A stretch of DNA of 64,000 nucleotides, taken from IMG/VR virus record IMGVR_UViG_2740892229_000011. One strand, 5' to 3'. Shown here piece after piece: positions 13,044-51,168 of this stretch. The first letter of the stretch is position 1. Each line of letters opens with the position of its first letter. This stretch comes from a virus. Its lineage: Duplodnaviria > Heunggongvirae > Uroviricota > Caudoviricetes. The position numbers were made by a program, and so were the translations under genes. Below the pieces are notes generated by a model. It ran no database searches. It saw only the letters and a list, made by a program, of their open reading frames with translations, and had not been told where the DNA came from.

Positions 13044-13118
13044 GATGGTGTAGCTCAGCGGTAGAGCAGTTGGCTGTTAACCAACTGGTCGGTGGTTCGA
13101 ATCCACCCACCATCGCCA
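13044..13118 (+). tRNA. tRNA-Asn (anticodon GTT)
   Basis: Cloverleaf read by hand: acceptor gatggtg/caccatc, anticodon loop ctGTTaa, T-loop GGTTCGAATCC, 3' CCA encoded; differs from the recalled E. coli tRNA-Asn. Confidence 0.85.
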
Positions 13119-13123
13119 ATTTA

Positions 13124-13210
13124 GGGGAGTTAGTCCGTAGGGGCAGCGGGGTAGACTGTAAATCTACTGTCATTGCGACTCGGGTGGTTCGACTCCATCA
13201 CTCCCCACCA
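13124..13210 (+). tRNA. tRNA-Tyr (anticodon GTA), type II with long variable arm
   Basis: Acceptor ggggagt/actcccc, anticodon stem gtaga/tctac with loop ctGTAaa, long variable arm, T-loop ttcgact, CCA encoded. Confidence 0.7.
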
Positions 13211-13214
13211 AATT

Positions 13215-13290
13215 GCCGGTTTAGCTCAGTTGGTAGAGCGCCTGCCTTGTAAGCAGGATGTCAGCGGTTCGATCCCGTTAACCGGCACCA
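13215..13290 (+). tRNA. tRNA-Thr (anticodon TGT)
   Basis: Acceptor gccggtt/aaccggc, D-arm tagctcagttggtagagc, anticodon loop ctTGTaa, T-loop ttcgatc, CCA encoded; 4-nt spacer from tRNA-Tyr. Confidence 0.8.
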
Positions 13291-13291
13291 A

Positions 13292-13380
13292 CACAACAGG
13301 TAAGAGCATTGGGCGAATCGGCGATACTGACCCACAAGCCCGTAAATCGATAGAGTCAGACCAGTGCTCTTACCGTTGTG
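13292..13380 (+). repeat. Long inverted-repeat hairpin element E2
   Basis: Arms cacaacaggtaagagca / tgctcttaccgttgtg enclosing about 56 nt, directly after tRNA-Thr. Confidence 0.5.
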
Positions 13381-13426
13381 AGGAAGTGCAGCTCTTTGAA
13401 GCAACCAGAAGATAAGCATCTGGCTT

Positions 13427-13510
13427 CACAACACAACGATAAGATCATTACGGTTAATCGTCGTTCATGTGCACAATGACTGGTCGAAAGGTAGTGATCT
13501 TACCGTTGTG
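13427..13510 (+). repeat. Long inverted-repeat hairpin element E3
   Basis: Arms cacaacgataagatca / tgatcttaccgttgtg; the 3' arm is near-identical to that of E2. Confidence 0.5.
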
Positions 13511-13610
13511 ATGAATGCACAGGCTGATGTGCCGCAACTACAGTAGTGCGCGCTTTGCGGGGCTTGCTACAACCCTGTGTCGGAGTTCAGCACCGACCAT
13601 CACAATAGCT

Positions 13611-13697
13611 GGAGAGTAGGGAGCATGGTGCTCAAGCGGTCTTGAAATCCGTCCCATTGTGCAAACGATGATGGTTCGATTCCATTACTCTCCGCCA
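13611..13697 (+). tRNA. tRNA-like element, type II (possible tRNA-Ser, anticodon TGA) with weak anticodon stem
   Basis: Acceptor ggagagt/actctcc, T-arm gatggTTCGATTccatt, CCA encoded, loop cTTGAaa; the anticodon stem is only 4 bp plus a U-U, so function is uncertain. Confidence 0.4.
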
Positions 13698-16768: not shown

Positions 16769-18877
16769 ATGTCTAAAAAACGTTCCATCAAAGAGGTTCA
16801 GGACTTCCGTGACAGTGTAAAACGAGTAGTCGCTCTCCTTTCAGGTAAAAACATCCCTGTTGCAGAACGAGGGGACGACGCTTATGTATGCTATAACGAT
16901 GATGGAGAGCCAATTCTCGTAAACATCCCATCAATCCCGGATAACGCAACACCGGCATTGATGAATGCTGTGCGCGGATTTCTCGATCATGAGGTTGCTC
17001 ACATTTTGTTTACCGATATTCGTGTGTCCAACAAAATGAGAGAAAAAGGACGCGTTCCTTCCTGGTCGCTATGGAATGCCTTAGAAGACGTGTTCATCGA
17101 GCGAAAAATGGGTCAGGTCTTTAACGGAACAAGACGTAATCTGATGGCAACTCAGCGCCTTATAATCGAAAAAGTCTTTAAACCAAAGGCTTCAGAGGCT
17201 ATTGCTTATTGTGGCAAAGATCAGCGCGCGCTTTTTCTAAACTTCTTTCTCTGTCCGGTTGTAAGAGCCTGGGATGGCCAAGCACCGTTCGTAGATTTCA
17301 TGGATGAATATTGGCCTGTCATTGAGAAACCAATTTCATTATTAAAAGAACATGGTATCGATGTGGCCGTGCGTAACATGTCTTGCACCGAGGATTGTGT
17401 AAAGGTGGCTGCGACCATAGCTAAGATCCTCAAAGACACTGAAAGTGAAAGCAAAGGTAAGGAGTCAGCTCCGGGAAAAACTTCCGATCCTTCAGACGCT
17501 GAACAGACGGATGCCTCTGGAGAAAACAATGAAGATAACGAAGATCATGAGACACCCTCAGCGTTAGATAATCACAAATCTATCAAATCAGAATCACACA
17601 GTAAGCACAAACATGATAATAACGACGGTGATGATTCAGATAATTCTGAATCATCAGAAACAATATTCGATGATACAGAAAATGATAAAGAGGTATCAGA
17701 TTCTGATGCTTCTGATAACGCGGTGTCAGAATCATTTACCGCTGACCACGAAAAAAGAAAAACGACAGAAGACGGCTCTTCAGATATCCCAACTCCGTCA
17801 AAAATGAGTCTGGAAGAGGCTTTAGAGGAGCTGGATAGCATAGAAGATGAAGTCGGAGGCATGACAGAAGATGCTCTATCCGAAACGATTAAAAGCGAGT
17901 TAACAGAAAGCTCGAAAAGCGAATACAGGCCATACAATCGCTCATACGACTTCATCGGCTCGATTGATCAGGCAGAAGCCCATATCAAACGGCTTATTAA
18001 AACATTCTCCGATATTGATTTAGGAGGATATCCAATCAGCCGCTATCGCATCGTTCCTGAAGGCAACCAGCTCTTCGACAAATATATTGAAAAGCATCTT
18101 TCGTCAGGTGTTTCGTCGACGCTGGCAAAAGACCTGGAGCGAGCAATAGCAAGCAGAAACAGAGTTCAGTTTATACCGGGCCAGCGTCGGGGGCGCATTC
18201 ATGGTTCTAGTATCTACAGATTAGCAATGAATGATGATCGCGTGTTTCGTAAAAAAGAAGAATCTAAAGCCGTTAACGCCTGTGTTCAACAAGTGATTGA
18301 TTTATCAGGTTCAATGAGTGGTATAACGATACAATTGGCTCTTGCAAGTGCATATACCATCGCCGATGCCCTTGATCGAATAAATGTTCCCAACATTATC
18401 ACCGGCTTCACTACATTTGGTAGTCATATGGCGGCAGGAGAACTTAAGGCTGTCAAGTATGAGTTCTCTCGCTTTGAATCTTTAATGCTACCTATCATCA
18501 AAAATTGGAATGAAAAGGTAAATTCTCGCGAAGTTCGCTCACGTATGGGGTGCGTAGGCTACACATTCCCACTTCTTAATAACGTGGATGGTGAAAGCAT
18601 AGCCAGCCTTGCATCGTTATTTTCCGGTCGCATGGAGGACAGGAAGATCATGCTTGTTCTGAGTGATGGCGCGCCGTGGGCTGTTGGGAGAGGTTTTGAC
18701 GCTCATTTGCGTTCGGTTGCGAAGCAAATTGAAACGCAGACTGACATTGATTTGATGGCAATTGGCATCATGACTGACGCACCGGAGAGATTTTACTCAA
18801 ATCATGCCCTGGTAACGAGCGTTGATAGTCTTGGTTCATCTGTAGTTACTGAACTATCTCGTATCATTTTGAAGTGA
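16769..18877 (+). CDS. CobT-like protein: N-terminal HExxH region, acidic linker, C-terminal vWA domain
   Basis: HEVAH motif; long D/E/S-rich central stretch; vWA MIDAS motif DLSGSMSG and VLSDGAPW; conserved TIR. Confidence 0.6.
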   Translation: MSKKRSIKEVQDFRDSVKRVVALLSGKNIPVAERGDDAYVCYNDDGEPILVNIPSIPDNATPALMNAVRGFLDHEVAHILFTDIRVSNKMREKGRVPSWSLWNALEDVFIERKMGQVFNGTRRNLMATQRLIIEKVFKPKASEAIAYCGKDQRALFLNFFLCPVVRAWDGQAPFVDFMDEYWPVIEKPISLLKEHGIDVAVRNMSCTEDCVKVAATIAKILKDTESESKGKESAPGKTSDPSDAEQTDASGENNEDNEDHETPSALDNHKSIKSESHSKHKHDNNDGDDSDNSESSETIFDDTENDKEVSDSDASDNAVSESFTADHEKRKTTEDGSSDIPTPSKMSLEEALEELDSIEDEVGGMTEDALSETIKSELTESSKSEYRPYNRSYDFIGSIDQAEAHIKRLIKTFSDIDLGGYPISRYRIVPEGNQLFDKYIEKHLSSGVSSTLAKDLERAIASRNRVQFIPGQRRGRIHGSSIYRLAMNDDRVFRKKEESKAVNACVQQVIDLSGSMSGITIQLALASAYTIADALDRINVPNIITGFTTFGSHMAAGELKAVKYEFSRFESLMLPIIKNWNEKVNSREVRSRMGCVGYTFPLLNNVDGESIASLASLFSGRMEDRKIMLVLSDGAPWAVGRGFDAHLRSVAKQIETQTDIDLMAIGIMTDAPERFYSNHALVTSVDSLGSSVVTELSRIILK

Positions 18878-20388: not shown

Positions 20389-23300
20389 ATGAAGGCACTG
20401 ATGGTTCGAACTGACTTCTCACTTGGGGAGTCGGCTTTAAAAGCAGAAAACGCGGTGAAGATTGCCAGAGAAGCTGGCTACACCGCTGTAATTTCAGCAG
20501 ATAGCATGAATATTGCGAGTGTTATTCCACTACAACGTGCCGCTGGTGACGACATGGCGGTTATTTGTGGTGTGAAACTAAATATCGTTGATGATCCCAC
20601 ATACGAGCACCGGGCTAAACTTGCTAAAGAATCTAAGGGATGTATGGAATCATTAGAGCGAGGACGTAACTACTCGTTTACCGCTCTAATTAAAAATGAG
20701 AAAGGATATCGCGACATCTGCGAACTAATGACGGCGGCCAACACACGAGAACAGTTCTACTTTGTACCGCGTCTCTCGCTCGAACAGTTGGTTTCTACAT
20801 ATGCCAAAGGCAACATCATCCTGCTTACTTCCGACATCGGTAGCGTGTTCCAACGCAACGATTTTGCAAAAATCATAAGCACACTGATTACAGCGGGTGG
20901 AAAAGACAACTTCTATAGTGTGGTTTATCCGCACCCTACCCCATTCTACGACCAGATTAACGTCCGGGCGATGAAAGTCGCCAGCGCATTGAAAATAGAG
21001 CCAGTGGCGTTCTATCCCGCTTATTACGAATCGATCGACGATGCAGACATTAAAGACATTGCGCACATGGTTACGAACAACATCAAAATCGACCAGCCGC
21101 ATCGTCTGCGTATCCCCCACCAGCGAGATAACGCCGTCAATGGTCGCCGCCATCTCCTTGAGGCGCTTAAAGCCTTCTCCGTTCGCATGGATGTGCCGGT
21201 AACAGCTGCAATGGCCTCAACAACGCAGGATACCATTATCGATGCCTGCACATGGCGCTGGCATGAATTGCCGCCAGCACTGCCAAAGATGGCAGACGAC
21301 GAGCCTGCAACGCTTATGAAACTGGCTGTTGCAGGGCTGCGTAAACGTCTTACCACAAAAGAGTTTGGCTACACACCACCTGCTTCTGAGAACAGGGTTT
21401 ATGTTGAGCGGCTAAAGTACGAAATGGACACGCTGACTCGCCTGGGATTTTGTGGTTACTTCCTGATGGTACGCGATCTGATGAATCACAGCCGTGAAAC
21501 TGGCATTCCTGTCGGGCCTGGTCGTGGTTCCTCCGCTGGCTCTTTGGTGGCATGGTGCATAGGCATAACCAACGTCGACCCTATCCGTCACGGTCTTCTG
21601 TTTGAACGTTTCATCAACCCTGAGCGTCTCGACTTGCCAGATGCGGATTTGGACTTCAGCCAGGCACGTCGCCATGAGGTGATCGAGTATCTGAATGAAC
21701 GATACGGCGAAGATTACGTTGCGGGTATTCCGAACTTCACATATCTGGGCGCAGCCTCTGCACTACGTGACACCGCTCGTATTTATGGTGTGGAGTCCGC
21801 AGATATGGCGGTATCAAAAGAGCTGAGGAACGTCGAGGATGATAGCCTTCCATTGGAAGAGCTGCGCGAACAACTGGCAAGTCTCGACAAATACGCGACA
21901 AAATACCCTGATGCATTCAATGCTGCCTGCAAGTTACAAAGTCTTATGCGTGGCTTTGGTAGACATGCGGCAGGGATGATCGTAGCAGGTGTTCCTCTGA
22001 CAGAACGTACACCGGTTGAACGCCGTGGTGACGCGCGTTGTATCGCATTTGACAAGCGTTACTGCGAGGCTATGGGCCTAATTAAGCTGGACGTACTTGG
22101 TCTGGCAACTCTCGATTTGCTCGATAGTGCAAAACGCTACATAAAAGAGAACACAGGTGAAGATATCAATCTTGATGCCATTTCTCTTGAAGATCGCAAG
22201 GTGCTGGATGGTTTTGCTGCTGGGTACACTCAAGGTGTTTTCCAGCTTGAATCAGGCCCAATGCGCAAGCTGCTTAAAGATTTAGGTGGTGGAATTGAGC
22301 CAATGAGCTTTAAAACGGTCGTTGCTACGACTGCGCTCTTCCGGCCGGGGCCAATTCAGTCAGGCATGTTGGATGATTATGTTTCTGTCGCCAAAGGCTT
22401 TATGACGCCGGAATCATTACACCCCGTTCTTGATGAACTTACCGCAGAAACAAATGGCGTGATTCTCTATCAGGAACAGACGATGAACGCGACTCGATTG
22501 CTTGCCGGCTTCACAATGGCTGAAGCTGACGGTGTTCGTAAAGCGATCGGCAAAAAAGACATGGAGAAAATGAAGAGCATGGGTGAGAAGTTCATCGTTC
22601 AGGCTCAAGCTGGCTGGATCGACGTTGAGCTGGAAGATGGCACTACACAGCGCATTCACCGTGCGGAACATTTTAAATGCGAAGACGGAACTCTGAAAAC
22701 TGTCGAAGAGGCACTTGAGTTCGGTGCAAAACTACCTATAAACGCAGTACGCGTTACAGCGTCACATCCAGGGCTATCAGAGATGAAAGCGAAGGAGATC
22801 TGGACCGCATTCGAAAAGAATGGTGCCTACCAGTTCAACAAATCACACTCTGTTGCTTACTCCTTAATCAGTTATCAATCTATGTGGTTGAAAACTCATT
22901 ATCCCGCAGAGTTTTTCGCTGCTGCTCTCACTATTCTTGGCGAAGATAAACACCAGGGGCTGGTTAAAGATGCGCTGACCTATGGTATTCGCGTATTGCC
23001 ACCAGACGTTAACGTGTCATCTAACCGAATCGAGATCCGCACGCTTGAAGATGGCAGCCAGGTGCTGTATGCGCCCTTCTCTGCTGTGAAGGGGTGTTCT
23101 GAGAATGGCTGCCAGGCCATCATGAGAGCGCGAGAAAAGGTTGGCGGCAAATTCGAGTCACTTGCGCAATTCGAAGAAGCTGTCGAGAAACGTGCCTGTA
23201 ATAGTCGAGTGCGCGAATCGCTGCAAAAAGTAGGGGCGTTTGCATCCATCGAGCCAGGTAGTCTGCCAGCAACTGATCCAGAGCGCCTCCGCGACCAGGC

Positions 23301-23907
23301 TGAATTGATGGGAAACCTTGTCATAGATGCAGTTAAAGCCTCACGTCCGTTTGAGATGAACCCCAAACGTTCGGCTGAGATTAACGTGCTCATGACACGG
23401 ATGGCGGCTGAAATGGGCTTAGGTGATGAACTAATCCGCCCCAGCATTGGTATTAAGCCGAAAATCATGATCATTCTGGACAATGCAAACGGCAATGATG
23501 CTCGAACCGGTTACTTCATGGAGAACGGATACGACGATTTTAAGGCCAAGCTGTTGACGGCTGGAGATTTGCGCATGGGCGATCTGTATGTCACAGGCGT
23601 TTGCAAAAAGGTGAAAGACAAAGAAAAGGACTACACCAAAGACGAGATCGGCCAGTTCACCGACTTTATGCGTGAAGAGATCAATCTGGTACGTCCGACC
23701 TATGTGCTGACGTGTGGCAGTCGGGCAACGGCATTGTTTAACAACAAAAACAAGCCATCCGATTTAGTCGGTAGGAAGGAGTATCTTCCAGACCTTGACG
23801 TTACAGTCTTTTACGGGTTTAACCCCAACATTCTTTACTTCAGACCTGAAGAGGGAGAACGACTAGAAGCGATATTAGCCGACGTAGCAGAAACTATTAA
23901 GTCGTGA
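20389..23907 (+). CDS. DnaE-type DNA polymerase III alpha subunit homolog (PHP + polymerase core)
   Basis: 1172 aa; layout with N-terminal PHP-like region and central polymerase region (motifs GFCGYFLMVRDL, PGRGSSAGSLVA) resembling bacterial DnaE. Confidence 0.85.
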   Translation: MKALMVRTDFSLGESALKAENAVKIAREAGYTAVISADSMNIASVIPLQRAAGDDMAVICGVKLNIVDDPTYEHRAKLAKESKGCMESLERGRNYSFTALIKNEKGYRDICELMTAANTREQFYFVPRLSLEQLVSTYAKGNIILLTSDIGSVFQRNDFAKIISTLITAGGKDNFYSVVYPHPTPFYDQINVRAMKVASALKIEPVAFYPAYYESIDDADIKDIAHMVTNNIKIDQPHRLRIPHQRDNAVNGRRHLLEALKAFSVRMDVPVTAAMASTTQDTIIDACTWRWHELPPALPKMADDEPATLMKLAVAGLRKRLTTKEFGYTPPASENRVYVERLKYEMDTLTRLGFCGYFLMVRDLMNHSRETGIPVGPGRGSSAGSLVAWCIGITNVDPIRHGLLFERFINPERLDLPDADLDFSQARRHEVIEYLNERYGEDYVAGIPNFTYLGAASALRDTARIYGVESADMAVSKELRNVEDDSLPLEELREQLASLDKYATKYPDAFNAACKLQSLMRGFGRHAAGMIVAGVPLTERTPVERRGDARCIAFDKRYCEAMGLIKLDVLGLATLDLLDSAKRYIKENTGEDINLDAISLEDRKVLDGFAAGYTQGVFQLESGPMRKLLKDLGGGIEPMSFKTVVATTALFRPGPIQSGMLDDYVSVAKGFMTPESLHPVLDELTAETNGVILYQEQTMNATRLLAGFTMAEADGVRKAIGKKDMEKMKSMGEKFIVQAQAGWIDVELEDGTTQRIHRAEHFKCEDGTLKTVEEALEFGAKLPINAVRVTASHPGLSEMKAKEIWTAFEKNGAYQFNKSHSVAYSLISYQSMWLKTHYPAEFFAAALTILGEDKHQGLVKDALTYGIRVLPPDVNVSSNRIEIRTLEDGSQVLYAPFSAVKGCSENGCQAIMRAREKVGGKFESLAQFEEAVEKRACNSRVRESLQKVGAFASIEPGSLPATDPERLRDQAELMGNLVIDAVKASRPFEMNPKRSAEINVLMTRMAAEMGLGDELIRPSIGIKPKIMIILDNANGNDARTGYFMENGYDDFKAKLLTAGDLRMGDLYVTGVCKKVKDKEKDYTKDEIGQFTDFMREEINLVRPTYVLTCGSRATALFNNKNKPSDLVGRKEYLPDLDVTVFYGFNPNILYFRPEEGERLEAILADVAETIKS

Positions 23908-24032
23908 TCCAATAAACATGGCCTCTATGGCCATGTTTTCTCTTATCCCCTCATATCCCCTATCCTCGAACTCCTTGCCTTATCATCACAATGATATAAT
24001 CAATATAAGATGATAAGTAAAAAGGAAAGCAC

Positions 24033-24464
24033 ATGATCACCGATATTTACGAGAAAATAATGTCTGATCTCGAGTTTGACCGAGACAATCTGGAGGAAGT
24101 CTGGCGTAGACAACCCCGCCTTTTAATGGAGTATGGCTCAAAACTCGCTCATGCAGAAAGAAGTGTCGCAGAGGCAAAACTTAACCTTGAAGCTGTTGAA
24201 GCAAAGCTATACGACACAGAGCGTAAGAACTTGAGTATGAACGGCATTAAGTTCAACGAGTCTGTACTGGACGCTAAGGTTAAAACAAACCCACAGTATC
24301 TATCTAAACGTCAGAAGTTGGATGACGCACGGCACATAGCAGACATATACAAACATGCTGTCGCCGCCTTTTCGCATCGCCGAGACATGATCGTTCAGGC
24401 GTCGAAGATGGCCATTGTTGAATTAGAGCGATTAGGCTCCGAACGCTTTATTACTCCCCGTTGA
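24033..24464 (+). CDS. hypothetical protein (possible UvsY-like recombination mediator)
   Basis: 143-aa helical protein immediately upstream of the SSB gene; similarity to UvsY is only impressionistic. Confidence 0.3.
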   Translation: MITDIYEKIMSDLEFDRDNLEEVWRRQPRLLMEYGSKLAHAERSVAEAKLNLEAVEAKLYDTERKNLSMNGIKFNESVLDAKVKTNPQYLSKRQKLDDARHIADIYKHAVAAFSHRRDMIVQASKMAIVELERLGSERFITPR

Positions 24465-26883: not shown

Positions 26884-29223
26884 ATGGCAAAAGGAAAATC
26901 CGCACTGGCACTTGCTCTGAAAAAGAAAATCGGTAGCAACGACGAAATTCAGAAAGTAACTCATTGGATTGATACAGGCTTTCCACCGTTAAACAAAGCT
27001 ATTTCTGGTCGTTACGATGGCGGCTTCCCATGTGGTCGTATCGTCGAAGTATTCGGTCCTCCAAGTGCAGGGAAATGTGTTACCGCAGACACCATGCTGC
27101 TGACGGAGCGTGGAATGGTAACAGTGAAAGAGTTGTTTGAGATTGAAGGGTACAAAGCGACATGCACTACTCGCGATGTAGAGCATAACGTTGGACTCAT
27201 CAATGAAAATGGCGTGATAGAGAAGACCTCACACCTGACATGGAACAACCGTCGCAAATTCAAGCGTATTAAGCTGGCATCAGGCGGTTATATCGAGGCT
27301 ACGTTCCGTCACCCAATCCGTGTGGTTGACGACTTAGGTAATGTCGTCTGGCGACATGCTGAAAAAATCAGTGTAGGCGACACGATTCCTTCAATGGTTG
27401 GCACACATCAATTCGGCGATCAGCACCTGGATGCCAATATCGCAAAACTGATGGGCTATTTAATTGCTGACGGATACGTGGCCTCTGAAAATTCAGTGAA
27501 TTTTTCTAACACAGATCCTTTCATCAAGGATGAGTACTACCGCCTCATTTCGCTGGTATCAGACAAGATGCCAGTTACGAGAAAACATAACGGCTCGGAA
27601 GACCATGTGCTGTTTAGCAAAGAGGTGCGTTCGCTGCTTTTTAAAGAATATGGTCTGGAGTATGAGAAAGCTGCTGGCAAGCAGGTTCCGTTGAGTGTGC
27701 GTCGCGCCAATAGCGAGGCTCAAATTGCATTCCTTCGCGGCTACTTTGAGCTGGAATGCCACGTCAATGATGGTCGCTGCATTGAGGTTGTGAGCGCGAG
27801 TGGGCTGCTGCTACAGCAAATTCGCCTCATGCTCCTGAATCTGGGGATTACGTCAACTATCTCTGAAAAACACGTCGCGGGTTATGAAAATACATATTAC
27901 CGGCTGTCATTCAGTGGCTCTAATTACGACCTTTTTCTGTCAACGATTGGTTTCGAATCTCCGGCACGTTTATCAGTGGCAACCAAACGGGACATTGGTT
28001 TTGACCGCACTTACTCAGGCTATGTTCCGCACATCAGCGGCTTAGTGAAATCACTCTACGAGTCGCTCACCAAGACCACCCGTGAAGACTACGCTCTGGT
28101 AGACCACGTTATTGGCCGCGGCGATCGTGTCGGAATAGACAAACTGCGAGAAATCTATGTCTCCTTCATTGGCAGAAAGAATCGTTTTAACGAGCATCTG
28201 TTTGCACAACTGGCAGCGGTAATTGGCTCTAACTTGTTCTACGACGAAGTCGTGGCTATTGAGGAAGGTGAAGCACCAACGTTCGACGTAGCGATGCCGG
28301 AAACACACTCTTTCTGGTCTAACGGGATTATCAGCCACAACACATTCCTTGCAACAGCAGCGATGATCTCCGCTCAAAAACAAGATGGTCTGGCGGTATT
28401 CCTCGATCATGAAAACAGTTTTGACGTTGGCCTGGCTGTAGCCAATGGCCTGAACGCAGATGAGGATGACGGTCAGTGGGTATACAAGCAGCCAGATACC
28501 TTCGAAGACTCTGTAGAGTTGATCGGCACAATACTTAAATTGGTTCGTGATGAAGAGCTTATCCCCGAATCAGCACCTATCTGTATCGTGGCTGACTCAC
28601 TTGCGTCTATGGTTCCGAACTCCAAAGCCGAGAAGTTCGAAAAGATGGCTGAAGGCACTGCCAAAGACAAAGATCAGCTAAACATGAACGACAATACGGC
28701 ACTGGCTCGTGCGACAAGTGCGAACTTCCCTACTCTGGCTTTGTGGGCACGCAAATACAACGCCTGCATCATCTTCTTGAATCAGGTTCGCACAAAAATC
28801 GGTGTAATGTTTGGCGACCCTACTACGTCGCCAGGTGGAGATTCACCGAAGTTCTACGCTTCTGTACGTATCCGTCTTGGTGCATCGGTGATGAAGGATG
28901 GTAAAGAGAAGATCGGCCAGGACGTAGGCGCAGAATGCATCAAAAACAAAGTTGCACCACCGTATGGCAAATGCACCTGGAAATTCTACTTCGATCCTAC
29001 TCGTGGCCTCGACGTTATCGAATCGCTCGTCGAGTACATGCTGGAAGAAGGATACCTGCCAAAGAACGCCAGCGGGCGAGTTGAAATTGGTGACAAGAAA
29101 TACACCAAATCGCAGATCGTCGAGATGTATCGGGAGAAGCCACTGGCTGAAATCATTGCGGCTTTGCAGGCAATCGACGACCGAAGAGCAAAAGACAACC
29201 CCACCGAGTCAGTAGAAGAGTAA
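26884..29223 (+). CDS. RecA-like recombinase interrupted by an intein in the P-loop
   Basis: Extein joins to GPPSAGK|TFLATAAM ... FLNQVRTKIGVMFGDPTTSPGGDSPKFYASVRIRLG, closely matching RecA core motifs; extein about 357 aa. Confidence 0.85.
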   Translation: MAKGKSALALALKKKIGSNDEIQKVTHWIDTGFPPLNKAISGRYDGGFPCGRIVEVFGPPSAGKCVTADTMLLTERGMVTVKELFEIEGYKATCTTRDVEHNVGLINENGVIEKTSHLTWNNRRKFKRIKLASGGYIEATFRHPIRVVDDLGNVVWRHAEKISVGDTIPSMVGTHQFGDQHLDANIAKLMGYLIADGYVASENSVNFSNTDPFIKDEYYRLISLVSDKMPVTRKHNGSEDHVLFSKEVRSLLFKEYGLEYEKAAGKQVPLSVRRANSEAQIAFLRGYFELECHVNDGRCIEVVSASGLLLQQIRLMLLNLGITSTISEKHVAGYENTYYRLSFSGSNYDLFLSTIGFESPARLSVATKRDIGFDRTYSGYVPHISGLVKSLYESLTKTTREDYALVDHVIGRGDRVGIDKLREIYVSFIGRKNRFNEHLFAQLAAVIGSNLFYDEVVAIEEGEAPTFDVAMPETHSFWSNGIISHNTFLATAAMISAQKQDGLAVFLDHENSFDVGLAVANGLNADEDDGQWVYKQPDTFEDSVELIGTILKLVRDEELIPESAPICIVADSLASMVPNSKAEKFEKMAEGTAKDKDQLNMNDNTALARATSANFPTLALWARKYNACIIFLNQVRTKIGVMFGDPTTSPGGDSPKFYASVRIRLGASVMKDGKEKIGQDVGAECIKNKVAPPYGKCTWKFYFDPTRGLDVIESLVEYMLEEGYLPKNASGRVEIGDKKYTKSQIVEMYREKPLAEIIAALQAIDDRRAKDNPTESVEE
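27076..28341 (+). other. Intein (422 aa) with LAGLIDADG homing-endonuclease domain inside the RecA Walker A motif
   Basis: Starts with Cys (CVTADTML), block B TxxH (ATFRHPIRV), LAGLIDADG motifs (LMGYLIADGYV, FLRGYFELECHV), ends SHN followed by Thr +1. Confidence 0.8.
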
Positions 29224-49763: not shown

Positions 49764-49994
49764 ATGTCATACCCGACTAATGTCGTTGCGCTCGTAGAGA
49801 GCGATTTTCTGGCCCAGGCTCGTGAAATGATGAAAGATCGTGAGCAGGCTTTCAACTTGTACGAGTGGGCAATTAAGTGCTTGCATCTTGGCGAGCATCG
49901 CGAACTTGTTGAACAGCTTTTAGGTGAGTTGATCAATGAGGTGTTTGCCTTGAATGTTCAACTACATGGTCGAGAAAATAATCAATCAAAATGA
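49764..49994 (+). CDS. hypothetical small protein
   Basis: Start chosen at the ATG preceded by AAGGAAACCAACATG (track start 49740). Confidence 0.35.
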   Translation: MSYPTNVVALVESDFLAQAREMMKDREQAFNLYEWAIKCLHLGEHRELVEQLLGELINEVFALNVQLHGRENNQSK

Positions 49995-50577
49995 TAGATA
50001 AGTACAAACTATTCATAAAGTGAATTGTAAGTGCTAAGATCTGATAGTTTCCAGTCGTAGACTGGAGGCTCGACCTGATGGGTGGGGGTAAGCGTCACTG
50101 GCGTCAGGTTTAAAAAAGCTCACTACCAGCGTAGAACCGGTGCCGTATAGGTGTCGGGGAAGGGGGAACCAAAGTGAGCGGAGACAAGGGTCACTTTATG
50201 ATTGTCGAGTCTGGGGTGTTTCGAGAGGTTGAATCCAGTACTCCCCTTCATAAAGTGTGGGAAGATCTCGGTTCTGGGGTGCTGTCATCCATAACTTCCC
50301 AAGTCTAAGCTGGCAGTAGACTTAGACCATAGCTTTTCAGGTTATGAAACGACCAGGTTGGTGAGGAATTTTATACTCACCTCCCTGGGAGAGTATTACC
50401 TGAAAAGACAACCTCTCACTTCGTTCGAGGTGAACTTCACTCACTTCGTTCGTTCAGTTCAGGTTTATAAAAACCTGTTCTGGGAAGTAATTTGTTTATT
50501 TTAATAATTATTAACACGCACGCGTGTGCGCACGCGCGAGGAAAAAAATCGGCGCGGCGCTTGATTCAGGAGTTTAT

Positions 50578-51168
50578 ATGACGACGAAGACACCAGCCCG
50601 ATCGCAAGCAAAAACTCGCAAAAAAGCCAAAAACAAAAATTCTCCCCGCACCAATCCCACAACGCCTGTCGTAGAGTTCAATCCCCAGCTTAAAACCGTG
50701 AAAATCTTCAGTGATGGCTCTTGCCTTAAAAATCCGGGTGGCCCGGGCGGTTACGGTATCGTTCTTCAGTATCGTGGAGAGGAACGCGAGTTCTCAGATG
50801 GTTTTCATAGCACCACCAATAACCGCATGGAGATGATGGGGGCACTTATCGGGCTGGAGCGTTTGAAATATCCATGCAACGTTATTTTGCACTCTGATAG
50901 CCAGTATCTGAAAAACGGCATGACACAGTGGATGAAATGGTGGAAACGCAATGGATGGATGACTTCTGACAAAAAACCGGTAAAGAATGTTGATCTGTGG
51001 AAGCGTCTGGATGAGGCCGCAAGTCGACATAATGTTCGCTGGAAGTGGGTTAAAGGTCACGCCGGGCATCGTGAAAATGAAATATGTGATCGACTCGCGA
51101 AGATCGCAGCTTTTTCAGCAGCAGATATGCCTCACAAGAAAGATATTGGTTTTGTTTATAACAAGTAG
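50578..51168 (+). CDS. rnhA: Ribonuclease H (RnhA type) with short N-terminal basic extension
   Basis: Near-complete match to recalled E. coli RNase HI motifs ([47 protein letters not shown]); start at ATG with SD AGGAG (track 50524). Confidence 0.85.

Follow-up and report, generated by a model that had tools for sequence, protein, structure and literature searches.

Orphan RNAs such as GOLLD, ROOL, OLE, and raiA are several hundred nucleotides long, fold into multiple domains, and show strong conservation and covariation. New large structured RNAs are rare, and the known orphan classes occur mostly in organisms that are hard to manipulate. Here we describe an intergenic interval (positions 49,995 to 50,577) upstream of an RNase HI gene (rnhA) in a 64,000-nucleotide stretch of viral DNA (IMG/VR record IMGVR_UViG_2740892229_000011; hereafter, the window). 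The window is an SSU5/pHCM2-type phage-plasmid, a kind of element that is common in clinical Escherichia coli, Klebsiella, Salmonella (including the Typhi element pHCM2), Enterobacter, and Cronobacter, and that in some cases carries resistance genes, CTX-M-15 among them. The interval is expressed in lysogeny, is better conserved than the genes around it, and has a plus-strand fold that is supported by covariation. We propose, with about even confidence, that it is a self-contained plus-strand gene for a large structured non-coding RNA, with its own promoter and an insulating 3' module, and that the RNA would act in trans through its fold.

The SSU5-type RNA resembles the orphan RNAs named above in being several hundred nucleotides long, multi-domain, conserved, covarying, and carried on a phage-type element. 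It differs from them in having no Rfam match to any of the four, even at E <= 10, in not lying beside tRNA genes (the tRNA cluster of the element is 37 kb away), and in being confined to one enterobacterial phage-plasmid family. Unlike GOLLD, which is reportedly expressed during lytic growth, it is expressed in the prophage state, and unlike GOLLD, ROOL, and OLE it sits in genetically tractable hosts (E. coli, Salmonella, and Klebsiella). The known immunity RNAs of temperate elements (P1/P7 c4, N15 CB, and P4 CI) are 70-80 nucleotides (nt) long, are processed, and pair with repeated sites in their own operon. Extrachromosomal mycobacteriophage prophages that lack RepA replicate from transcribed non-coding stretches of 400-500 bp, which are both necessary and sufficient for the process (Wetzel et al. 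2020, PMC7157519). Searches of the literature found no such RNA described in SSU5/pHCM2 elements, with one 2026 preprint on SSU5-type copy-number heteroresistance lying outside our coverage, and the only earlier trace of the RNA is a hypothetical protein of 44 amino acids (aa) termed a 'moron'.

A highly conserved interval with no conserved reading frame

The initial annotation described the interval as free of open reading frames (ORFs) of 60 aa or more on either strand, and this is borne out by our analysis: between the stop codon of an 84-aa ORF (49994) and the rnhA start codon the longest ORFs are 53, 48, 44, and 42 aa. A 214-aa ORF that begins with a GTG codon at 50524 is simply an in-frame upstream extension of rnhA, the start of which is the ATG at 50578 (as annotated by PGAP), preceded by AGGAG at 50568-50572.

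We collected 71 SSU5-family loci through the RNase H protein. The interval was detected by blastn in 67 of them at 86-99% nucleotide identity, and RNase H itself drops to 75% amino acid identity. In a sliding comparison of 6.6 kb against seven divergent relatives, the core of the interval (50069-50468) is 91-97% identical, compared with 50-80% for the flanking coding sequence and 50-61% for the first 100 nt of rnhA, so that the core is the best-conserved stretch of this neighbourhood. The conserved block is sharp-edged in an alignment of 42 sequences. From 50111 to 50488 most columns show no variation, whether in loops or in stems; the promoter area, the first hairpin (50047-69), and an A/T-rich spacer (about 50489-50513) drift or vary in length. 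The RNA is under far stronger purifying selection than the neighbouring protein genes. That loops and junctions scarcely change from one host genus to another suggests dense tertiary contacts or the binding of a conserved protein or host component, and not pairing with variable targets.

The interval was matched in 12 phage records (including SSU5, Cyrano, and CMS-2020a), in 687-692 PLSDB plasmids from Klebsiella, Escherichia, Enterobacter, Salmonella, Citrobacter, Cronobacter, and Shigella, and in 232 of 5426 complete E. coli genomes. A search for distant homologues (blastn 'distant' mode) in 72,556 plasmids, 50,697 phages, and the E. coli genomes returned nothing below ~88% identity except a spurious 21-nt match, and E. 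coli host chromosomes showed no partial similarity to the interval. IMG/VR was first scanned with 15-mers, and 277 loci (2 Mb) were then searched with an nhmmer profile; only full-length family members were recovered, again with none below ~88% identity. RNase H-based locus retrieval in the genome collection returned chromosomal rnhA loci only. Being nearly invariant, the RNA can serve as a marker of this plasmid family, and it may offer a means of attacking the family.

No gene or RNA is annotated over the core in several hundred records (PGAP, PLSDB), the sole exception being phage Cyrano, in which CYRAN_81, a 44-aa 'hypothetical protein', is equivalent to window positions 50174-50308 inside the core. 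The corresponding ORF, which begins with GTG, encodes 44 aa in 29 sequences and a frameshifted 39-aa product in 9, and stops after 15-16 aa in the other 4. The 48-aa ORF, which begins with TTG, takes nine different forms among the clades. These shifts in frame and length from clade to clade led us to reject a protein-coding reading, and the annotation of CYRAN_81 and its equivalents as proteins is in error. The lack of a conserved reading frame is as expected of a structured non-coding RNA gene.

No known RNA family accounts for the region. An Rfam/Infernal search of the whole window at the gathering threshold (Rfam 15, 4227 covariance models) identified only three tRNAs at 13 kb. Searches of the region itself at E <= 10 and E <= 1 with permissive filters returned only sub-threshold noise, the best hit scoring 24 bits against a gathering score of 81, and an HCV stem-loop scoring 21 bits against 56. 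ARAGORN found no tRNA or tmRNA in the region.

A plus-strand fold supported by compensatory substitutions

The plus strand of 50040-50510 folds at -172 kcal/mol (z = -4.8 against dinucleotide shuffles), which bears out the several stem-loops reported in the initial annotation. The minus strand of the same interval folds at -141 kcal/mol (z = -4.6), so that the plus strand is more stable by 31 kcal/mol. RNAalifold placed 139-143 pairs in 19 helices from the 42 sequences (the main elements are listed in Table 1). Covariation was assessed for 143 pairs of the 42-sequence alignment against two controls, in which pairing partners were slid by 1-3 columns or columns were shuffled 500 times. Standard pairs occupy 98.8% of cells, compared with 36-48% for slid partners and a mean of 96.9% for shuffles, none of which reached the observed value. 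Fourteen pairs are changed on both sides (2-4 when slid; 4 of 500 shuffles reach 14). The number of double-change cells (144, against 2-18 when slid) and the covariation score (0.103, against 0.012-0.033 when slid) were each reached by 0 of 500 shuffles. Conserved structure with compensatory substitutions above controls, a feature of structured non-coding RNA genes, is thus present here.

The compensatory changes are located in six helices, namely H1, H2, the closing stem of the H3 domain, H9, H14, and H19. Six of the nine pairs of H1 are changed on both sides, as are 3 of the 15 pairs of H2 (AU>GC nine times, CG>UA 12 times, and AU>GC eight times), in which 100% of cells are paired. The closing stem of the H3 domain has a UA>CG change in 14 sequences (alignment columns 189:247), H9 and H14 each have a CG>UA change, and H19 has one compensatory pair (UA>GC nine times). 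The CG>UA pairs of the core are at alignment columns 264:325 (three times) and 374:396 (six times). G·U is the commonest form in 13 pairs, several pairs vary solely between U-A and U-G, and one-sided changes between A and G occur opposite U. These frequent G·U pairs and U-A/U-G variants would be mismatched on the minus strand, and the functional molecule is therefore the plus-strand RNA.

The initial annotation also reported tandem copies of a short sequence at about 50415-50455. There are two exact 13-nt copies of CTCACTTCGTTCG (50415-50427 and 50440-50452, 25 nt from start to start), but they are not tandem, and Tandem Repeats Finder called no array. In the fold model the second repeat is the 3' arm of H18 and the first contributes strands to H7 and H17, and the GAGGUG between them is predicted to be able to pair with either copy. 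The repeats are invariant in 42 of 42 aligned sequences, so covariation is uninformative on their pairing. Perfect or near-perfect complementarity is also present over longer distances, between GAGAGGUUG (50223-50231) and CAACCUCUC (50409-50417) and between AUAACUUCCCA and UGGGAAGUAAU (50291-50301 with 50481-50491). Both of these compete with consensus helices and could represent pseudoknots or alternative folds; all of the positions involved are invariant.

Expression in the prophage state

Misson et al. (2023) re-analysed RNA-seq data from E. coli LF82 (PMC9928086). The phage-plasmid of this strain, Cyrano, is 97% identical to the window at the RNA interval. CYRAN_81 is listed in their Table 1 as a 'moron' with expression 12-fold above the prophage background (PMC9928086). 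In the gene-level data of the same study (Table 2), the CYRAN_81 segment is expressed in the prophage state at 8-40 times the level of both neighbours and at about the level of the putative repressor. This indicates that the segment is transcribed, or accumulates, well above its neighbours, and that most of the RNA does not reach rnhA. The data set has separate plus- and minus-strand profiles. The initial annotation had named transcriptional silence, or a lack of conserved structure in related elements, as grounds for doubting a functional RNA; the published expression data and the covariation-supported fold show that neither applies.

A sigma-70 promoter is predicted upstream of the fold (Table 1), and transcription from it would begin at the very base of hairpin H1, close to 50047. 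The 12-fold increase in RNA-seq signal from CYRAN_80 to CYRAN_81 is consistent with a start at this predicted promoter. The geometry of the promoter and its TAnnAT/TTnAnn character are kept in all clades and the bases drift, with TTTAAA, TTTACG, or TTTACT at -35 and TAAAAT, TACAAT, or TAGAAT at -10.

In the LF82 RNA-seq table, a further 'hypothetical protein' of Cyrano, CYRAN_43 (OV696614, 40268-40822), stands 723-fold above the prophage background. It may be a small gene with very strong expression, or another RNA that has been mis-annotated.

Table 2. Expression of selected Cyrano genes in E. coli LF82, from S1 Table of PMC9928086. Values are log2 fragments per kilobase per million (fpkm) for the two replicates of each condition: LB overnight, B1, B6, MB1, and MB6 (macrophage, 6 h). 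The last column is the normalised count in LB.
Gene	LB	B1	B6	MB1	MB6	LB count
CYRAN_80 (upstream)	3.36/3.13	4.62/4.2	4.1/4.07	5.81/5.14	5.22/5.01	9.5
CYRAN_81 (inside core)	6.82/6.92	9.34/9.02	6.94/6.89	8.97/8.23	10.35/10.30	117
CYRAN_82 (RNase H)	2.59/3.44	3.87/3.83	4.42/4.27	4.7/4.01	5.02/4.78	8.4
CYRAN_45 (putative repressor)	6.75/6.39	9.08/9.36	7.35/7.56	10.35/10.33	9.76/9.98	96

The 3' module and independence from rnhA

The 3' edge of the conserved unit consists of an A/U-rich spacer, an alternating purine-pyrimidine tract, and a GC-rich hairpin (Table 1). The spacer is always AT-rich, has indels of up to about 13 nt, and shows little identity between clades; it is likely to be the main 3' end of the abundant RNA, by termination or processing. 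The alternating tract was initially annotated as 23 nt long. Its alternation is indeed perfect, but it extends over 25 nt, one to two bases wider than had been stated. No other alternating run in the window exceeds 14 nt, and 200 shuffles gave at most 23 nt, with none at 25. Alternating runs of 18-29 nt are present in every relative, and they differ by transitions and even-numbered length changes. The run is rich in CG/CA and longer than the ~12 bp expected of a Z-DNA-forming sequence, and at the DNA level it has a sequence-based Z-DNA potential. At the RNA level the same tract is modelled as the 5' arm of the GC hairpin. This hairpin has no compensatory pairs and its energy is unremarkable (z = -0.3), and on these grounds we rejected the GC tract as a covarying RNA hairpin.

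The 84-aa gene is upstream of the RNA in 134 of 134 full-length copies among the fetched loci, and rnhA is downstream in nearly all. In five loci rnhA is absent or cut. The slot downstream of the RNA holds an 822-aa TIR-NLR anti-phage gene in L250 (6033-8501, minus strand; PADLOC E = 8e-166), an IS3-type transposase in L269, and unrelated genes in L268, and in L212 and L229 rnhA is cut after nine codons. All five variants keep the RNA core, the AT-rich spacer, the alternating GC tract, GAGG, and the A-run, and homology stops just past the A-run, where a different 3' strand is still able to pair as a GC stem around it. Because the RNA and its 3' module are kept where rnhA has been replaced, the unit is not an RNase H leader. 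The initial description of a regulatory region upstream of RNase H was thus correct as to position but not as to the tie with RNase H. From these comparisons we conclude that the conserved unit extends from the promoter to about 50560, that the GC tract belongs to the RNA unit and not to rnhA, and that the position just downstream of the unit is a cargo-exchange point. Three of the variant loci share a junction sequence in this slot similar to CCCATCGYAATGTCTTCAATGTGCCAAAAGC.

Table 1. Features of the RNA unit and its upstream boundary, in window coordinates.
Feature	Position	Strand	Remarks
Palindrome copy, 20 bp (consensus ATAGGTAAGTACTTACCTAT)	49994..50013		abuts or overlaps the -35 element of the RNA promoter
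Sigma-70 promoter (predicted)	50012..50040	+	-35 TTCATA 50012-17; 17-nt spacer; TG 50032-33; -10 TAAGAT 50035-40
5' hairpins H1 and H2	50047-55 with 50061-69; 50072-87 with 50093-110	+	sequence varies by clade, pairing kept
Nearly invariant core	50111..50417	+	identity to relatives; compensatory pairs
Domain H3	50118-23 with 50174-79	+	contains H5 and the purine-rich GGGGAAGGGGGAACC
Multi-helix domain	closed by 50181-91 with 50411-17	+	contains H9, H11/H13, H14, H15/H16
Two 13-nt direct repeats	50415..50452	+	on either side of GAGGTGAA
3' three-way domain	50418..50488	+	H17 50418-22/50484-88; H18 50423-33/50441-51; H19 50454-64/50473-83
A/U-rich spacer	50489..50513	+	variable in sequence and length; U-rich in most clades
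Alternating purine-pyrimidine tract (CG/CA/TG), 25 nt, ACACGCACGCGTGTGCGCACGCGCG	50514..50538		
GC-rich hairpin	50527..50560	+	single-sequence prediction; loop of GAGG and A7 run (50542-50548)

A proposed RNA gene and alternative explanations

The suggestion in the initial annotation of a non-coding RNA or a complex regulatory region is supported by the conservation of the interval, by its covariation-backed plus-strand fold, and by its transcription. In the gene model that we propose, a moderate sigma-70 promoter of its own would drive an RNA that starts at about 50047 and measures ~450 nt if it ends in the U-rich spacer near 50500, or ~510 nt if it continues through the GC hairpin to about 50560. 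The RNA would begin with a protective 5' hairpin, would fold into about 19 helices in three domains, and its synthesis would be constitutive for as long as the phage-plasmid persists in its plasmid-prophage form. The A/U-rich spacer and the GC hairpin, with its alternating tract and A-run loop, would constitute a 3' module that stops or destabilises transcripts, sparing the silent early genes downstream from a constitutive promoter. The RNA may act in trans by means of its fold, and a conserved protein or host component is its most likely partner, for which it would serve as scaffold, decoy, or ligand; it apparently works neither by long antisense pairing nor as an rnhA leader. Candidate roles include maintenance of the carrier state, immunity, host manipulation, defence, and replication. 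Searches of the proteins encoded by neighbouring genes for a partner (Pfam, PHROGs, PADLOC) found nothing RNA-related.

The defining features that we tested failed for every family considered, and we therefore rate the RNA as a new class. A more far-reaching version of this proposal, which we regard as possible but doubtful, is that it is the founding member of a new class of large tertiary-structured RNA needed for the plasmid-prophage lifestyle of SSU5-type elements, in which the Z-DNA-prone 3' tract would be a supercoiling-sensitive read-through gate. The RNA might then, for example, work on a conserved host component, either within a ribonucleoprotein or as an RNA-only machine, or provide a device for replication or copy control that does not depend on Rep.

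Several observations weigh against the proposed RNA gene. Most of the core never varies and only about 6 of the 19 helices covary, and the sequences form few clades, so that there are few independent substitution events. The predicted promoter scores 8/12, which is under the 9/12 cut-off of our consensus scan, and it was therefore not called. Both ends of the RNA are predicted rather than mapped, and in the Klebsiella clade the 3' domain is not followed by a U-tract. The expression data come from one strain, at the gene level, for an annotated ORF of 135 nt, and the strand-awareness of the counting is unconfirmed; the high RNA-seq signal could also arise partly from the stability of a processed fragment rather than from a separate promoter. 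Finally, the scaffold or decoy step was reached by elimination, because no partner, phenotype, or homologue was found outside one phage-plasmid family.

The main rival explanation, which we consider unlikely, is a cis-acting leader or attenuator that doubles as an immunity RNA in the manner of P4 CI, N15 CB, and P1 c4, such that during lysogeny the RNA ends before, and thereby prevents, expression of downstream early or anti-immunity genes, with relief on induction. As in those systems, a lysogeny-active promoter stands at the head of an operon with silent downstream genes: the unit heads a plus-strand block of early genes, promoter-proximal RNA is abundant, and rnhA and the genes that follow are at background level in the prophage state. 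The identical repeats on either side of a segment that could pair with either of them resemble an alternative-hairpin switch, and the 3' module stays with the RNA whatever gene follows. However, the SSU5-type RNA is about six times larger than the known immunity RNAs and has no match to Rfam C4 or to any other family, and an invariant multi-domain fold of 400 nt far exceeds the needs of an attenuator. The regulated gene would also have to be interchangeable (rnhA, TIR-NLR, and others), and the downstream Shine-Dalgarno and start regions are poorly conserved. The longest complementarity between the RNA and the rest of the 110-kb element, as represented by a 100%-identical plasmid, is 11-12 nt, the same as in shuffled controls. 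We rejected antisense regulation on the element on this basis, and rejected membership of the P1 c4/N15 CB/P4 CI class on this basis and on the size of the conserved fold (about 440 nt). A role as the RNA partner of downstream cargo, either a type III antitoxin-like RNA or a defence-associated RNA with a terminator before a weakly expressed effector, is very improbable. The RNA is far more abundant than expression of the downstream gene, it contains direct repeats as ToxI-like antitoxin RNAs do, and the slot that follows can hold a TIR-NLR defence gene. The usual downstream gene, however, is an ordinary RNase HI (Pfam PF00075, E = 1e-44) with no PADLOC match, there is no ToxN-like toxin, and the cargo varies between variants where the RNA does not. 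The only repeats are the two 13-nt copies, which are buried in helices, in place of a tandem array of 34-36-nt units, and we rejected a type III toxin-antitoxin system on the basis of these repeats, the lack of an array, and the downstream RNase HI.

We also consider improbable, more so than the immunity leader, an RNA-primed (R-loop) replication origin, in which a ~500-nt transcript would form a persistent hybrid near the GC tract and A-run and be cut by RNase H to prime DNA synthesis. As in RNA II of ColE1/pMB1, the transcript is structured and has G-rich segments, the distance from the predicted start to the A-run is similar (about 495-500 nt), a GC-rich segment is followed by an A-run at the 3' edge, an RNase H gene is adjacent in most loci, and GAGGAAAAAAATCGGCG resembles GGAAAAACGCC of the ColE1/pMB1 origin. 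The RNA is also expressed in the plasmid state, and homology between variants breaks right after the A-run. Unlike the ColE1/pMB1 system, the SSU5-type unit has no antisense RNA I (there is no conserved minus-strand promoter or terminator in 50047-50200, and the only minus-strand promoter-like site, at 50053-50024, faces away from the RNA), and on this feature we rejected a ColE1-type RNA II/RNA I origin; there is also no homology, and RNase H is dispensable for retention of the RNA. The element shows no GC-skew switch, its helicase and primase genes are 45 kb away and its ParB/partition genes about 26 kb away on the circular 110-kb record, and conservation is strongest in the internal core, not at the 3' end that would form the hybrid. 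A precedent for such an origin exists in the non-RepA mycobacteriophage prophages, the 'ori' RNAs of which are likewise transcribed from 400-500 bp of non-coding DNA on a plasmid-prophage and expressed in lysogeny (PMC7157519). Those regions lie beside parABS in phages without RepA, whereas a RepA is reported for the SSU5 family (PMC3999498) and parABS is not adjacent here, so we rejected a mycobacteriophage-type RNA origin; nor is there any sequence relationship between the two. The RepA replicons differ between family members (48% identity between pECOH89 and pLF82; PMC3999498), in contrast to the invariant RNA, and Pfam and PDB searches of the 100%-identical plasmid did not confirm a RepA. 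As improbable as the cargo partner is conservation at the DNA level, in which the block would be a recombination anchor, a Z-DNA or cruciform element, a protein-binding array, or a recently spread mobile segment, and the RNA a by-product. The block is sharp-edged and lies next to the cargo-exchange point, it includes a conserved Z-DNA-prone tract, and it adjoins a dispersed palindrome. The strand-specific signatures of RNA, however, are present as compensatory changes and numerous G·U pairs, the accumulation of the transcript appears discrete in the Cyrano gene-level RNA-seq data, and the block is found across SSU5-family loci with clade-specific substitutions, as vertical descent under selection predicts.

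Genomic context and other features of the element

The genes around the RNA are all on the plus strand and are involved in nucleotide metabolism and DNA transactions. The order upstream is a DnaQ-like exonuclease, phrog_5235, Dam methylase, and the 84-aa protein (phrog_5343); the interval is followed by RNase HI, phrog_10411, a TerB-like protein, and a DUF4942 methyltransferase. The RNase HI has an N-terminal extension of ~40 aa (50578-50700, plus strand) that is basic and of low complexity. No other part of the gene is as poorly conserved (50-61% nucleotide identity), and chromosomal RnhA, alignments to which begin at about query residue 41, lacks the extension.

The palindrome that abuts the promoter belongs to a dispersed set. 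There are 19 strand-hits at 13 sites in the window, compared with 0.18 expected, and all of the sites are intergenic (1696, 12276, 17564, 24478, 29264, 31217, 34724, 39408, 44119, 48955, 49994, 51168, and 55219). A copy usually follows directly on a stop codon and precedes the next start codon by 2-40 nt, often with a T-rich run behind it. The copy at the promoter is kept at the same position in relatives, where it reads GGTAAGTACTTACC. One copy is located after rnhA, and the palindrome is also found upstream of rnhA in two phage loci that have no RNA (L143 and L144). The palindrome could serve in RNA processing, terminate transcription weakly, or act as an operator to which a global regulator binds.

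Elsewhere in the window, a cluster of tRNA genes (13044-13697, plus strand; Asn-GTT, Tyr-GTA, Thr-TGT, and Ser-TGA) adjoins glutaredoxin and integrase genes, and a RecA-like gene (26884-29223, plus strand) is split by an intein with a LAGLIDADG homing-endonuclease domain (Pfam RecA, Intein_splicing, and LAGLIDADG_3). In the 100%-identical plasmid (NZ_CP027358.1; locus L278), a 396-aa hypothetical gene, with no Pfam or PDB match, is located beside a 1.5-kb repeat-containing gap (17200-18771) and may be a candidate RepA/iteron replicon. The same plasmid carries host-like metG (methionine-tRNA ligase) and apbC genes (20593-24311) beside a gene for an S24 peptidase.

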